Assembly (NCBI GenBank): GCA_016926395.1
Contig: JAFGOT010000026.1
Coordinates: 1-22,832, forward strand
Direction: 5' to 3'
DNA length: 22,832 nt
DNA from: Candidatus Woesearchaeota archaeon
Lineage (GTDB): Archaea; Nanobdellota; Nanobdellia; Woesearchaeales; SKGA01
Under the pieces are notes generated by a model, which was given only the letters and a program-made list of their open reading frames with translations, did no database searches and was not told the origin of the DNA. A program made the translations under genes and the position numbers. This document shows positions 7,299 to 14,000 of the stretch, in pieces (positions within the stretch are counted from its first letter, which is position 1; every line of letters starts with the position of its first letter).

Positions 7299-9383
7299 TT
7301 ATTTAGCCATTACGTCAATGTTTTTCAAATCAGTAACAACAACTTCTAGTTCAGAACCTTCGAAGTCATAATCGCTGTAGTCAGCTACAACGTATGATGC
7401 TCCTCGAGTGTCTTGAGCAGACCAACCAGCAACTAACATTGCTTGTTCGTCGTCGAACCATTTAATCATTGCTTTACCATCAGTGAAAGTTTGAGCAATT
7501 TCTTCATCAGTTGGGAAACCTAGAAGTTCTTTAGCTACACTGTTAACGTATGGACCACCAACAACAATCATTGGTTTACTTCCTAGAGTTGCTTCAGAGT
7601 CTAGCATACCTAGTCCTACTTCGATTGGATTAACCATGTAAGCAGAGCCAGTTGCAGCAGCAGCTACACTAGAGCCTTTTGATTTAACAACTAAAGTTGC
7701 ATATTCTCTTTCGCTTGGAACGGAAATTATGAAACTTGCGCCACTACCAAATTGACTATCAGGATCAGCTAATTTGATACCGTAATCAGTTTGGTAATCC
7801 CATTCTTTAGTACCTAGAGAAGTTCCACCATATTTGATGTCTTCTGCATCAGAATCATCTTGAGTACCGAAGTAGTCAAATGCGTCGTCACCAGCGTTGT
7901 AGATTTCAACTGTTAATGCTTCGTCTCCTGGAGCTACAATAGTGAAAGTGTTGTTACCAGCACCATCAAGATCTGCGGAAGGAGTTACTCTAACGAGTTC
8001 AGCATCGATTAAAATATCGAATGAACTAATAACAACTTTGATTTCATCGCCAGCATCTTCGTACCAAATACCACTTAAAGTGTTATCAGTACTATTGTAA
8101 GCTACGTATACAGTTTCAGCAGTTTCAGTTCCAACAGTGAAGATGTCACTATCAGCTTCGAATTTAACAACTTTGTAAGTTCCTTCATCGTTAGGTGCGC
8201 TTTCGCCATCATCTAAGAAGTAACTGTCATCTAAGGAGATTTTTACATCTTCATAGTTAGCTGCTAAACTTGCAAATTGTAGAGCTGCGTAGTCGTTTGG
8301 AAGAACAACTTCATCACCTAAGAATAGAGGTGCTTTTTCTTCAGCTGGAGTGTTGATGTCTAGAGTGTCGTAGTCTTTGTTTAATCTTAGACCAACGTAT
8401 CTGTTACCAGATTCGTTACCAACAGCCCATACCCAATCAGCTTCAGCGTCGTCATCAGGTTGACCGAACATTTCAGCAGGTTGACCATCAGTTGCAGTTT
8501 CTTCTAAGTCTGCACCTAATTTTAAGTTTGCAATGTTGTCGGATGCTCCTTCAATGTAGAATAGAGAATCAACTTCAACTTGGAAATCATCTGCTTCGTC
8601 GAATGATTGGGAATTACCATCATCATTGATAACTTTAGTTTGACCATCAACATCAACAATAACAGAAGTTGAACCAACTCGCACTAATTTAACAGTGTGA
8701 CCTGCAACGTTTACTTCATCACCTTCAATCATGGATTTTTCAACTGATGAAATAACAGTGAAAGAACCAGAACCAATACCTTCAGAGAAGTCAAAGTTGT
8801 ATGCTTCAACATTTTGTCCTAAGAATTTGAATTCAGCAGTATGAGTTGCGTCTGCGTTTAAAACTTCAGCATCTTCGAAATAAACTCTGTATTCAATTCC
8901 GTTTTTAGCAACAGTAACATAATCTTTACCAGCCGCATCTTCGTTTTGAGCAGGGTTAATCATTGTTTGATTAGCGAAGAAAACAATTTCATCGTGGTAA
9001 TCAACAGTGTCGCCATCAACATCAAAGTCAGAATCAACGAAACCATCTAGGTGGTTTTCTTTTAATTCAACATCAGCATTAGGCCATGTGTTGTTTAAGT
9101 AAAGGTTATCATAATCTTTACCGCCTTCAACTACAACTGAGTTGTCGCCAACAGAAACTGCTCTTTTAGCTTCAGCTTGTAAACTAGCTGCAATATCAAT
9201 TGCTCCTAGAACATCTGATGTAGCTGCGTTTGCACCAACTACAATTGCGCCGTTAAAAACGCCGTTATCATCTACAAAAGGTGCTGGATATTTACTTAGA
9301 TCAGCAAGTGCACCAACCATGGTAGTTGCTAATAAAGCCACACTAACACCAAGTGCGAATACTTTTTTTATACTTTTTTTCAC
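7299..9383 (-). CDS. S-layer protein (archaeal S_layer_N / S_layer_C type)
   Basis: Signal peptide MKKSIKKVFALGVSVALLATTMVGALA, N-domain DLSKYPAPFV...IVVGANAATSDVLGAIDIAASL, C-domain MIVVGGPYVNSVAKELL...MLVAGWSAQDT. Very acidic. GTG start with GGAGGTG SD at 9390-9396. Confidence 0.92.
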   Translation of the reverse strand: MKKSIKKVFALGVSVALLATTMVGALADLSKYPAPFVDDNGVFNGAIVVGANAATSDVLGAIDIAASLQAEAKRAVSVGDNSVVVEGGKDYDNLYLNNTWPNADVELKENHLDGFVDSDFDVDGDTVDYHDEIVFFANQTMINPAQNEDAAGKDYVTVAKNGIEYRVYFEDAEVLNADATHTAEFKFLGQNVEAYNFDFSEGIGSGSFTVISSVEKSMIEGDEVNVAGHTVKLVRVGSTSVIVDVDGQTKVINDDGNSQSFDEADDFQVEVDSLFYIEGASDNIANLKLGADLEETATDGQPAEMFGQPDDDAEADWVWAVGNESGNRYVGLRLNKDYDTLDINTPAEEKAPLFLGDEVVLPNDYAALQFASLAANYEDVKISLDDSYFLDDGESAPNDEGTYKVVKFEADSDIFTVGTETAETVYVAYNSTDNTLSGIWYEDAGDEIKVVISSFDILIDAELVRVTPSADLDGAGNNTFTIVAPGDEALTVEIYNAGDDAFDYFGTQDDSDAEDIKYGGTSLGTKEWDYQTDYGIKLADPDSQFGSGASFIISVPSEREYATLVVKSKGSSVAAAATGSAYMVNPIEVGLGMLDSEATLGSKPMIVVGGPYVNSVAKELLGFPTDEEIAQTFTDGKAMIKWFDDEQAMLVAGWSAQDTRGASYVVADYSDYDFEGSELEVVVTDLKNIDVMAK

Positions 9384-9573
9384 CTAAAACACCTCCGAGT
9401 GTTTATACACAAGGATTTTAATTTTTTTTATCAATCTCGTGAAATCCGATTTTTCCCGTGCGTGCATAGAGTTTGCAACAGAACCACGCAATCTTGCTTG
9501 ATTCCTCTTAAGCCTCCACACACACAGTTTTAGTGGAAAACCGAGTATGATGAAGAGAAAGTAACAAGATTGG

Positions 9574-9590
9574 TTTATAAAGTTTTCCCC
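9574..9590 (-). promoter_or_regulatory. BRE/TATA promoter of the S-layer gene, implying a 5' UTR of about 165 nt
   Basis: Minus strand reads GGGGAAAAC-TTTATAAA. The predicted TSS is near 9550. Confidence 0.55.
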
Positions 9591-10126
9591 CTATATTTAT
9601 AGTAAAAAGAGGGTAAATACAATACAGCGTCTATAAACCACGACAACCCTCAAATGGGCTTGTTACCACAACATAGTTACACACAAATTATCGCTTAATA
9701 AAACAAAGTTAAAAACAGAGACAAAACGCCCGTCTTAACAAGGTAAATCGGTAAAAAAACAATAAAAACCAAATCAACTGGACTTAAAGAGGGTCACAAG
9801 CACCAAAAAGGATTTAATTCGACCTTGACTAACGAAAGAAAGGTCAAAAACCCAATCTAAAAAAGTCAAACTTATTTATAAACATAGCTACTTAAGAGAG
9901 TTGAAAAAAATATTGAAAAAATGCAAAAAATGTTAAAAAATGCAAAAAAGTAGAGTTTTGTTAAAAATAACAAACAAATCGAAAACAACAAAATAAACAG
10001 AAATTAAACATAAGAAATTAAGAAAACACAAATTAAAGATGAAAGAAATAAAAGAGAATTTTAACACCAACTAAATTAAAATTTAGAATCAAATCAATAA
10101 AAACATCTCGATTGAATAAAAGAATG

Positions 10127-10170
10127 CGAAGCACAGGCAATGACATTAACATGTCAAGCCTTTAGCCTCG
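10127..10170 (-). other. 44-nt imperfect hairpin B; its 3' arm is the tRNA-derived repeat
   Basis: Minus strand: CGAGGC-TAA-AGGC-T-TGACAT-gtta-ATGTCA-TT-GCCT-GT-GCTTCG followed by CA. About 16 bp, including one G.U pair that only forms on the - strand. Confidence 0.75.
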
Positions 10171-10189
10171 ATTTAACAAAGTTAAATGC

Positions 10190-10233
10190 GAAGCACAGGA
10201 ATTCAATAATTAAAGATTATTGTTCCTTGCTTC
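10190..10233 (-). other. 44-nt imperfect hairpin A; its 3' arm is the tRNA-derived repeat
   Basis: Minus strand: GAAGCA-AGGAA-CAATAAT-cttta-ATTATTG-aa-TTCCT-g-TGCTTC followed by GCA. 18 Watson-Crick pairs with a 2-nt and a 1-nt bulge. Confidence 0.8.
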
Positions 10234-10245
10234 TTGTTAAGAAAC

Positions 10246-10329
10246 TGCGAAGCACAGGATTCGAACCTGCGTAGGCACTAAGCCAACGGGGCCTAAACCC
10301 GTTCCGTTTGACCACTCCGGCAACCTCGC
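10246..10329 (-). tRNA. tRNA-Leu (anticodon UAG), 84 nt, no intron, CCA not encoded
   Basis: Acceptor GCGAGGT/GCTTCGC plus discriminator A; D arm CCG/CGG with GG; anticodon stem ACGGG/CCCGT with loop TTTAGGC; long variable arm GGC-TTAGT-GCC; T arm GCAGG-TTCGAAT-CCTGT. Confidence 0.96.
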
Positions 10330-10362
10330 ATAAGAATTGCAACAACTAGAATAAAAACACCA

Positions 10363-11090: not shown

Positions 11091-14000
11091 TTAATTCTTC
11101 TCAAGAGAGATTACAAAAGTCCTGCCCTTAACTTTTTCTTCAGAAGTAAATTCGAAAGAGCCCGAACTCAAGATAGAATCAGTTCCAACTTTATCACAAA
11201 TAAGAGAACTATATTTTTCAATAATATCTCCAAGATCGCCTGTGACGCTAAGTTTTATGGAATCTTCTTTTTGCAAACCAGCAACTTTTCTTAAGTTTTG
11301 AATTCGTCTTGTTAATTCTCTAGCAAAACCTTCTGATTCTAATTCAGAGGTTACGGTCGTATCAAGATATACTTCCCCATTAGTAAAGGGCGCCATCACA
11401 TAAGGTGAAGGAACAACTTTAGTTATTTTGAAAAGGTCTCTATGTAAAACCCATTTGTCAATAACCACACTATCAGATTGGTTAAGAGTTTTTGTAACTA
11501 AATCCATATTCTTCTTAACAGCAGGAATAACATCACCAGTCTCAGTTCCAAACTCACCACCAAGAAGCTTGTAATCAATTTCAAATTCTAATTTAACATC
11601 AAAGCTAGATACAAATTCAATTTCTTTAACATTAGTTTGAGATTTAACTAAATCAAGAATATTTTTTTGTAGAGATGTTATTTTTTCACTTAAAACTTTA
11701 ACATTTGAAAGAGGCCATCTTACTCCCTGTTTAGCTTTTTCTCTTGCCGCTAAAATACCTTGAATAATCGTTTGTGCATCTTCAAATTCTCGTTCTAAAT
11801 CTAAATTTCGATAGCCAACTTTCGGCCAAGAATCAAAATGAACAGACCAAGGAGAATCATCGGTCTTTAAGAAATTTTGATAAATATACTCTGTTACGTA
11901 AGGAGCAAAAGGCGCTAGAACTTTAACAGTAGCATCCAATACAAATCTAAATACATAAGCAAGTTCTTTATCAACATCATTAGTTCGTTCTCTAATTAGT
12001 TTGATATACGTTCTTGAAAAAGTATTATTAACAAAATCCATTAAAGTATTCATCGCATGATTATATTCATGAACGTCAAGATGACTTGTAACAACATCAA
12101 TCATAGAATTAGTTTTTGAAATCATCCATTCATCTTCCAATTCAACAGCATCATGAACTTCAAAACCAGTTAGGTTAAAACGATCCATGTAATTTTGAAC
12201 ATAAAGAAATGAATTCCAAAGTGTTGTAAAAAATGGATTAATTTGTTCTTTGAAAATTGAAGGACCATATTTAATTGCATTACCAAGAGCATAAGAAGTC
12301 ATTGCTAAACGAACACCATCAACCCCAACTTCTGCAAATGTCTCCAAAGGTTTAATCATATTACCTTTACTCTTAGACATTTTTTCTCCATTTTCATCAC
12401 CAATCAAACCTGCAACAGCAACATTCTTGTAAGGAGACTTGTCAAACAAAATAGTGTTAATTACAAGCATAGTATAAAACCATCCTCGAGTTTGATCGAT
12501 TGCTTCGGAGATGAAATCATAAGGAAATGATTGCTCAAACAAATCTTTGTTCTCAAAAGGATAATGAAATTGTGCGAAAGGAGCGCTACCACTGTCAAAC
12601 CAACAATCAATAACTTCACTGGTTCTAGACATTTGACCACCACATTCAGAACATTTGTAATGAACTTTGTTAACAGTACCTAAGTGAAGGTCGTCAACTT
12701 GAACTCCAGATTTTTCCTTAAGCTCTGCAATACTTCCAATAACTTCTTGATGACCACAACCAGTCTGTTCGCCATCTTCAGAATCAGGCCCATTACAAAT
12801 CCAAATAGGAAGTGGAGTTCCCCAAAATTTATTTCGCGATAAAGCCCAATCTCTAGCACCTTCAAGCCAATTACCAAACCGCCCTTGTTTAATGTTATTA
12901 GGGAACCAATTGATAGTTTCATTGTGCTCAAGAAGTTTATCTTTGATTGCACTAACCTTGATGAACCAAGTATCTTTCGCATAATAAATTAAAGGAGTGT
13001 TACATCTCCAACAAAAAGGATATGAATGAACATAAGGAGAGGTTGTAAATAATCGACCAGTAGAATCTAACATCTCAATTATTTTTGAATCAGCATCTTT
13101 TACAAACAATCCTTTGAAATCAGGAACTTCATCAGTAAACTCCCCATTATCATCAACAGGATTTACAAAATCAATATCATTATCCTTACAGACAACATTA
13201 TCATCTTCACCATAAGCAGGAGCTTGATGAACAATACCTGTACCATCTTCAGTAGTTACATAATCAGCAGGAATAACTCTAAAAGAATTAGTTGCAACGT
13301 CTTTGAAATAATCAAACAAAGGAACATACTTTTGTCCAACTAAATCTTTACCAAGAACAGAACCTAAAATTTTTCGATCATCTTCTTCAAAATATTTTGA
13401 AACTAAATCTTCTGCTAGAACATAAATTTCTTTTTCCGATTCAACAAATTGATAGTTAACTTTTGGATGAACAGCTAATGCTAAGTTGCTTGGAAGAGTC
13501 CAAGGAGTAGTTGTCCAAGCTAAGAAAGTAACAGTTTTTTCTGATTTAATGTTAGCAAGTTTCTTAATTGATTCTTGATTAACAACAGGAAAAGTTACAA
13601 CAACAGTAGTATCTTCCACATCTTTGTAACCTTGAGCAACTTCATGACTTGAAAGAGGAGTTCCACAACGTGAACAGTAAGGAACAATTTTATGTCCTAA
13701 ATATAATAAATCTTTTTTATAAATTTCAGACAAAGCCCACCAGATACTTTCCATATAATCAGTATCTAAAGTTCTATAGGGTTTTTGAAGATCAACCCAG
13801 TAAGCGAGTTTTTCTGTTACATGTTCCCAATCTTTGATGAAAGTAAAAACATCATTTTTACATTCTTCGATGAAAGGTTCAACACCATATTTCAAAACAT
13901 CTTTTTTATCTTCTAAACCAAGTTTTTTTTCAACTTGAACTTCAACAGGAAGACCATGACAATCCCATCCACCTTTACGTGAAACTTTGTAACCTTGCAT

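Follow-up and report, generated by a model that had tools for sequence, protein, structure and literature searches.

The question raised by this locus is why the last bases of a leucine tRNA gene recur twice behind it, each time as the closing arm of a hairpin. The window (the whole stretch of DNA that was analysed, 22,832 nt) is contig C32 of an archaeal metagenome-assembled genome assigned to Candidatus Woesearchaeota. This source genome, labelled G000 here, comprises 1.02 Mb in 40 contigs with 32% GC and is estimated to be 82.5% complete. The original prediction, made from the letters of the window, saw in the two hairpins either minihelix RNAs linked to the tRNA or attC-like recombination sites. 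The genome-wide comparison favours another answer. The two units are probably footprints of a class of small non-autonomous hairpin insertion elements and would thus represent mobile DNA, not functional RNAs.

The repeated end of tRNA-Leu(UAG)

The tRNA gene is located on the minus strand, and the repeats follow downstream of it at lower coordinates. In the direction of the tRNA, the following features were identified:

10246 to 10330, minus strand: complete tRNA-Leu(UAG) gene with no encoded CCA (ARAGORN; Rfam RF00005, 47.6 bits)
10246 to 10259, minus strand: copy 1 of the tRNA 3' end, located inside the functional tRNA, 14 nt that begin with the last base of the T-loop and end with A73
10201 to 10245, minus strand: unit A insert, 45 nt, consisting of a T-rich linker, an arm complementary to the tRNA 3' end, the family-1 core palindrome and a 3-nt linker
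10204 to 10222, no strand assigned: family-1 core palindrome in unit A with an 8-bp stem and a 3-nt loop, one mismatch to the 19-nt consensus
10190 to 10233, minus strand: hairpin A, 44 nt, as delimited in the original prediction and folded against shuffles
10187 to 10200, minus strand: copy 2 of the tRNA 3' end, 14 nt in common with copy 1 and 15 nt with copy 3 including the trailer
10171 to 10187, no strand assigned: 17-nt mini-palindrome between units A and B, the sole local match to the attC R''/R' motifs and too short for an attC site
10138 to 10186, minus strand: unit B insert, 49 nt, consisting of the 17-nt mini-palindrome, an arm complementary to the tRNA 3' end and an inner hairpin that has no relation to the core of unit A
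10141 to 10156, no strand assigned: inner hairpin of unit B with a 6-bp stem and a 4-nt loop
10127 to 10170, minus strand: hairpin B, 44 nt, delimited and folded in the same way as hairpin A
10125 to 10137, minus strand: copy 3 of the tRNA 3' end (13 nt), with a native-looking T-rich trailer behind it
10099 to 10121, minus strand: first T4 and T5 runs past the tRNA on the tRNA strand, a possible terminator of the tRNA and the units

The repeated 13-mer, TGCGAAGCACAGG on the plus strand, occurs at positions 10125, 10187 and 10246, against a mean of 0.09 matches in shuffled sequences. On the tRNA strand it corresponds to the 3' strand of the T-stem, the 3' strand of the acceptor stem and the discriminator base (A73) of tRNA-Leu(UAG). 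Copies 1 and 2 agree in one additional base on the T-loop side, and copies 2 and 3 in two additional bases of the trailer. Further copies, for example a distant att partner, were not found in the rest of the 1.02-Mb assembly. The array is present in assembled contigs of two samples from one study, one of which is the likely source, and these contigs are identical from position 9000 to 10275. Since the contigs of both samples agree over this region, an assembly artefact could be ruled out. Neither a variant lacking a unit nor a joint was detected among the assembled contigs of the two samples. In the one RNA run of the study no contig covered this region, which does not indicate that it is silent.

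In a search of units A and B against Rfam only the tRNA itself was matched. The 45 and 49 nt between the copies of the tRNA end contain no ORF, and no recombinase, integrase or cargo gene was identified in the window. The site is surrounded by a gene for an S-layer domain protein and by archaeal-type genes. The start of the S-layer-domain gene (7299 to 9383, minus strand) is separated from the unit array by an ORF-free region of 740 nt (9384 to 10124), which is strongly A-rich on the plus strand, contains several imperfect internal repeats and is presumably the promoter and leader region of this gene. Immediately upstream of tRNA-Leu(UAG), between 10387 and 11029, an ORF for a small retropepsin-like aspartyl protease (PF13650) and a DUF5678 ORF are found, which are odd neighbours for a tRNA gene.

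For evaluation of the hairpins, both strands were folded and compared with dinucleotide shuffles (n=200). As RNA, the hairpin at 10190 to 10233 reaches -15.3 kcal/mol in the sense orientation (z -4.9) and -16.2 kcal/mol in antisense (z -5.2), and the hairpin at 10127 to 10170 reaches -21.4 kcal/mol (z -5.0) and -13.9 kcal/mol (z -4.3), respectively. None of the shuffled sequences was as stable in any of these four cases. With DNA parameters, z values between -4.2 and -6.1 were obtained for both hairpins and both strands, with bulges and internal loops in the folds. The inserts of units A and B fold with -16.8 kcal/mol (z -5.2) and -22.8 kcal/mol (z -5.3). The outer helices of the hairpins consist of 6 bp and end with the tRNA's own last bases. 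Coordinates and folds thus confirm two hairpins of equal length (44 nt) that use the tRNA 13-mer as 3' arm and are far better than shuffled sequences, as had been predicted. The strand-specific G.U pairing proposed for unit B was also found, and because of these pairs its tRNA-sense strand is 7.5 kcal/mol more stable than the antisense strand. The sense strand is the more stable one in 5 of the 6 short units of the genome, a bias that could be a hint of selection acting either on an RNA or on a single strand of the DNA.

The two hairpins had further been described as structure conserved without sequence. This applies only to the inner stems together with the one or two pairs next to them. The outer 5' arms of units A and B are necessarily similar, since both pair with the identical 13-mer, and the supposed compensation is therefore reduced to the inner stems and these adjoining pairs. 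The left parts of both units can be aligned to one another as well as to the native trailer behind copy 3 (p 0.02 to 0.04). Therefore, judged from these alignments, A and B may be tandem duplicates with an exchanged inner hairpin instead of two independent insertions. The 13-nt copies are identical, whereas the adjoining trailer-like parts have diverged, so the copies could be maintained.

Gene-end duplications around structured inserts

Repetition of the tRNA 3' tail is frequent in this genome. A tail of at least 13 nt is repeated downstream within 260 nt for 8 of the 28 tRNAs, namely Asn, Ser(GCU), Ser(CGA), Gly(GCC), Gly(UCC), Val, Ile(UAU) and Leu(UAG), and with a threshold of at least 11 nt tRNA-Leu(UAA) is added (9 of 28). 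Degenerate copies of the tail are located downstream of the tRNAs for Leu(CAA) and Met. Upstream of the tRNAs, repeats of the tail were not found (0 of 28), and the few repeats of tRNA heads are accounted for by neighbouring paralogous tRNAs. The left edge of the repeat lies within the T-loop (positions 56 to 60) in most cases, and its right edge falls on position 73 or 74 in 5 of 8. The downstream copy is directly followed by CCA in tRNA-Gly(GCC), tRNA-Gly(UCC) and tRNA-Ser(CGA). At tRNA-Gly(GCC), a run of six T follows directly after copy 1, ahead of the unit.

Several of these units have a core in common. The family-1 palindrome of 19 nt, with the consensus CAATAATCTTTGATTATTG, has 8 copies in the genome at no more than one mismatch. 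It is part of the units behind tRNA-Gly(GCC), tRNA-Gly(UCC), tRNA-Leu(UAG) and tRNA-Asn and behind two protein genes. Relative to the tRNA, the unit behind tRNA-Met carries the exact core in reversed orientation, and the units of tRNA-Ile(UAU) and tRNA-Ser(GCU) a close variant, likewise reversed.

Two further tRNA loci of the genome showed particular features. On contig C2 (20164 to 20299), an intron-containing class II tRNA with anticodon CAA and an intron of 49 nt was identified, which ARAGORN mis-called as tRNA-Val(CAC). The old unit that follows it is homologous to the unit behind tRNA-Leu(UAA) on contig C20. On contig C36, about 50 to 110 nt downstream of tRNA-Gln (13812 to 13884), a dyad consists of a 13-nt arm, an AT-rich spacer and the inverted 13-nt arm.

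The same arrangement was found at the ends of protein genes. On contigs C24 and C2, the family-1 palindrome separates two copies of an ORF end, which comprise the last 32 nt of the ORF on C24 and the last 20 nt on C2. An unbiased scan for short-range direct repeats of at least 12 nt revealed 90 in the genome, compared with 5 in a shuffled copy. At nine protein genes, similar inserts are flanked by duplications of the final 12 to 86 nt of the gene. The beginning of copy 1 falls within the ORF in all nine, and its end is found between -7 and +5 nt of the stop codon in seven. The junction is located within the final codons or the stop codon itself in four cases, where the insert provides a new stop. 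At least two additional insert families with 2 to 5 copies each were identified, nearly all copies of which are flanked by duplications of 22 to 84 nt. These are structured inserts of 30 to 105 nt with exact flanking duplications of 22 to 82 nt at protein-gene ends, located in the source genome at C17 39127, C19 24227, C29 9514, C38 2965 and C40 11218 as well as at C33 3784 and C38 7514. Several of them also interrupt the stop codon and provide a new one.

The source of the hairpin stem became apparent from the comparison of the six short units (both Gly tRNAs, Leu A, Leu B and the protein genes on C24 and C2). In all of them, an imperfect inverted copy of the first 9 to 14 nt of the downstream duplicate is located immediately left of the core hairpin, and arm, core and duplicate fold as one long bulged hairpin or palindrome. 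The 44-nt hairpins at tRNA-Leu(UAG) thus exist because each short insert has, beside its core, an inverted copy of the start of the duplicate that follows. The arms pair with their own duplicate at a mean of -13.5 kcal/mol and with those of other units at -8.1 kcal/mol (permutation p 0.00015). Family-1 cores of this genome that lack flanking repeats are extended by merely 3 to 5 bp, and strong arms occur only in the repeat-flanked copies. The larger units of two relatives, G008 and G009, likewise contain an inverted copy of the T-loop and T-stem region. Across the genome, cores are common to several loci and arms are site-specific; at tRNA-Leu(UAG) this is reversed, with common arms in A and B and different cores.

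The distribution of the units is patchy. At no more than one mismatch, the family-1 core is present in 4 of 41 related genomes: the source genome, a genome from one other family of the order, and two congeners with single copies. A few further low-GC metagenome-assembled genomes of archaea contain the exact 19-mer as well; a search of the genome collection yielded mostly chance bacterial matches and seven low-GC archaeal loci. Three of the exact copies elsewhere are located between duplicated sequences, and two of these adjoin tRNA genes, with the core in the opposite orientation relative to the tRNA. No copy of the family cores was found in 2.9 million viral contigs, and a metagenome scan with a 16-nt tRNA tail gave only chance matches in unrelated genes. 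In 12 congeners, the orthologues of tRNA-Leu(UAG) are followed by 0, 1 or 2 units. The end of each of these units is a copy of the tRNA tail of its own genome, and the interiors are unrelated. In G008 and G009, units are present at about half of the examined tRNAs, several of them as perfect tandem pairs. Such patchiness and fast turnover is the behaviour of selfish or neutral DNA and not that of a conserved RNA gene.

Next to tRNA-Asn in G008 (G008:C2:38219-41290), the T-loop of tRNA-Ile(GAT) is split by a hairpin-forming insert of 46 nt, without duplication of the tail. The orthologue in G009 is uninterrupted. The insert is either a non-canonical T-loop intron or a gene-disrupting unit, and the units may be linked to tRNA introns.

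Explanations for the origin of the units

One architecture recurs at the ends of tRNA genes and protein genes, its cores are common to several loci and its arms are site-specific, and it is patchily distributed and turns over fast. From these comparisons we infer that the units are not functional RNAs but mobile DNA, or else that they stem from a process dedicated to insertion or duplication. According to the preferred explanation as insertion elements, the tRNA-Leu 3' end would have been struck twice (10125 to 10259) by non-coding, hairpin-forming units of about 40 to 130 nt, which would belong to a class that is common in this Woesearchaeota-type (DPANN) lineage. Each insertion would keep the gene intact and leave the order gene end, insert, displaced second copy (last 13 to 30 nt) and original trailer. 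Since the overlaps between the copies place B before A, unit B would have been inserted first with a 15-nt duplication including two trailer bases, followed by unit A, which would have entered the tRNA-proximal copy with a 14-nt duplication. Alternatively, A could have arisen from B by tandem duplication, with exchange of the inner hairpin of A. Two routes to the arm appear plausible. The unit may pass through a folded single-stranded intermediate, the stem of which would mimic the target duplex and be acted on by a host recombinase; or an ordinary insertion may be followed by hairpin-templated strand switching, which would lengthen the palindrome. Several findings argue against an insertion element. 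The units lack terminal inverted repeats and have duplications of variable length (13 to 84 nt), and the edge of the duplication coincides with the gene end, unlike that of a simple staggered-cut transposon. Neither a transposase nor an integrase could be linked to the units, and the greater stability of the sense strand in most short units and the identity of the 13-nt copies beside diverged trailer-like parts likewise count against it.

A more far-reaching version of the first route is speculative, and we consider it rather improbable. The units would then be a new class of archaeal mobile DNA that enters essential genes as a folded single strand, its stem of arm and target copy imitating the duplex target, with the help of a Xer-type or other host recombinase. 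They would be handled as phage CTX or attC sites are by tyrosine recombinases. The tRNA and protein genes would survive the insertion because the element brings or regenerates the gene tail, and no dedicated transposase would be found because a host recombinase does the work.

Several enzymes were considered as candidates. Four tyrosine recombinases are encoded in the source genome, none of them near the window but on other contigs (C6, C18 and C30). In the first 7 kb of contig C30, two genes for tyrosine recombinases are clustered with a gene that resembles topoisomerase IB and weakly matches an integrase; this cluster may be an integrated element or a recombination hotspot. One IS91-type Y2 transposase was found on contig C18. 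This contig (2599 nt) carries the IS91-family rolling-circle transposase (PF04986 and PF14319) beside a tyrosine recombinase with a SAM-like N-terminal domain. The target of IS91, GTTC, is present in every T-loop, and the enzyme was considered for this reason. It was rejected because the family is rare in the order, with 3 of 41 genomes including the source genome. Of the 40 relatives only 2 encode it, and the 12 unit-carrying congeners are not among these. Y1 transposase, reverse transcriptase, Cas1, TnpB and DDE_Tnp_1 were not found in the source genome at its completeness of 82.5%; PF01797, PF07282 and PF01609 gave no match at their thresholds, and PF01867 (Cas1) was also not found. Reverse transcriptase is present in 8 of 40 relatives and absent from G008 and G009 despite their fresh tandem units, and Cas1 was detected in only 2 of 40 relatives, with a distribution different from that of the units; both were rejected. 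Copying of a mature tRNA from its 3' end was rejected as well, as the arms at protein genes copy the start of the duplicate and not its end.

An origin as decayed attL/attR scars was taken into account, given that the genome encodes four tyrosine recombinases and that elements with a tyrosine integrase are known to occur in tandem arrays. Virus or plasmid elements of this type would have integrated repeatedly into the tRNA-Leu 3' end and would have been deleted down to 45 to 49 nt each. Direct repeats that run from the T-loop to the end of the gene and stop there are a hallmark of att sites and restore the target gene (PMC9897764, PMC8371274). However, the published cases span 9 to 23 kb with repeats of about 44 bp, and neither an integrase nor cargo is located between or near the repeats in the window. 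The viral contigs contain no copy of the core. Independent decay to 40 to 130 nt with the same core and site-specific arms, at no fewer than 8 tRNAs and at 9 protein genes of a 1-Mb genome, is implausible, and we regard this origin as unlikely.

The units could also be by-products of repair or replication, with no mobile element involved. Palindromes would stall or break replication forks, and template switching would copy the gene end in direct and inverted orientation. The direct-inverted-direct arrangement of gene ends is as expected from serial template switches, and the arm is always an inverted copy of the part of the duplicate that is closest to the hairpin, which fits fold-back priming at a palindrome. 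It also fits that the tested enzymes are not co-distributed with the units. Such a process leaves unexplained why identical cores are present at unrelated loci and in different genomes, why nearly all copies in three insert families are flanked by repeats and why the outer edge of the duplication lies at the gene end. It is quite unlikely to account for the units.

We consider it very unlikely that the units are RNAs co-transcribed with tRNA-Leu, which would form acceptor-like minihelices and be processed by RNase Z, the CCA-adding enzyme or LeuRS to RNAs of about 46 nt. Several features of the locus are in line with such a tRNA-linked RNA system. Both hairpins terminate with the 3' strand of the tRNA acceptor stem and the discriminator, unit B is more stable in sense by the 7.5 kcal/mol given above, as are 5 of 6 short units in general, and no run of four or more T is located between the tRNA end and copy 3, so that the units may be transcribed by read-through. 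A system of this kind, kept by selection on its structure, is not supported by the genome-wide results. The hairpin design is shared with protein-gene ends, where a mimic of the acceptor makes no sense, and the T-loop, which is used by RNase Z, the CCA-adding enzyme and LeuRS, is replaced by an unrelated palindrome. The core occurs in either orientation, the interiors differ between orthologous loci of congeners, and no Rfam family is matched. At tRNA-Gly(GCC), the T6 run after copy 1 precedes the unit. The CCA behind the downstream copies of tRNA-Gly(GCC), tRNA-Gly(UCC) and tRNA-Ser(CGA) is in line with processing of an RNA, but it could equally be the original encoded CCA displaced by the insert. 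An archaeal bulge-helix-bulge intron was rejected on inspection of the folds. Such introns have two 3-nt bulges, each on the 3' side of the 4-bp central helix in its strand. On the 5' strand of the units the 3-nt loops precede the 4-bp helix, so that the handedness is wrong, and tRNA-Leu(UAG) is complete without splicing.

The main result is a DNA-level explanation for the striking signal of structure without sequence. In a search of the full-text literature, no published description of such mini-inserts was found. If the units are mobile, up to half of the tRNA genes in some 1-Mb genomes and several protein genes would have been invaded with their function kept, by an element that has neither terminal repeats nor a fixed duplication length nor a recognisable enzyme. 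This would be a new lifestyle of selfish DNA in extremely reduced genomes. For annotation, the displaced gene tails would be a source of error, since they resemble tRNA fragments, split tRNAs, att sites or novel RNAs.

Comparison with known systems

With minihelix RNAs that resemble tRNAs, the units have the acceptor-like helix ending in the discriminator in common. Placed behind a gene, such a helix could attract RNase Z or RNase P as well as the CCA-adding enzyme. Plant mitochondrial t-elements and mascRNA-type minihelices retain T-arm features and are conserved as RNAs. In the units described here, T-loop features and conservation across orthologous loci are absent: the T-loop is replaced, the interiors turn over fast and the same design follows protein genes.

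REP and REPIN sequences with their RAYT proteins and the palindromes derived from IS200/IS605 are tiny non-coding hairpin repeats at gene ends, which are mobilised in trans and depend on Y1 HUH transposases. To our knowledge, neither group duplicates its target. In contrast, the target is duplicated here, and Y1 transposase and TnpB were not found in the source genome. MITEs differ from the units, which lack terminal inverted repeats and have duplications of variable length.

Elements of the SSV, pNOB8 and pTN3 type and the PYG1 island produce direct repeats over the 3' part of a tRNA, which often start in a loop; the gene is restored, and 3' ends of protein genes are used as well (PMC9897764, PMC8371274). 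The repeats of 13 to 15 nt from the edge of the T-loop to A73 are similar in this respect. However, integrase elements are of kilobase size (9 to 23 kb) and carry an integrase, whereas here the whole 'element' is 40 to 130 nt of hairpin DNA, a single core is found together with many kinds of target copy, and the target also occurs in inverted form.

As an analogy, the Cas1 casposase is the closest biochemical system. The enzyme of Aciduliprofundum boonei targets sites beside the palindrome of a tRNA T-loop, and its staggered cut results in a 15-bp duplication overlapping the tRNA 3' end (PMC5137440). In vitro, short oligonucleotides can be inserted as substrates (PMC5137440). Casposon duplications comprise 14 to 15 bp, close to the 13 to 15 nt at tRNA-Leu; other loci described here have 17 to 84 nt, the termini of the inserts are not inverted repeats and the duplications end at the gene end. 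Without Cas1 in the source genome and without terminal repeats, the units do not belong to the casposons.

The similarity to attC sites, which had also been proposed, is restricted to a bulged hairpin that can fold as single-stranded DNA; core sites and cassette ORFs are missing, and the target duplication does not fit. Between 10100 and 10260, the motifs R'' (RYYYAAC) and R' (GTTRRRY) are matched solely by the arms of the mini-palindrome at 10171 to 10187 and not by the bases of the 44-nt hairpins. Unlike in an integron array, no ORF lies between the copies and no recombinase is encoded in the window, and we know of no target duplication in attC insertion. The attP site of phage CTX is a folded single strand, the stem of which mimics the duplex target. 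This folded-stem mimicry is paralleled here by the stem that arm and duplicate form together.
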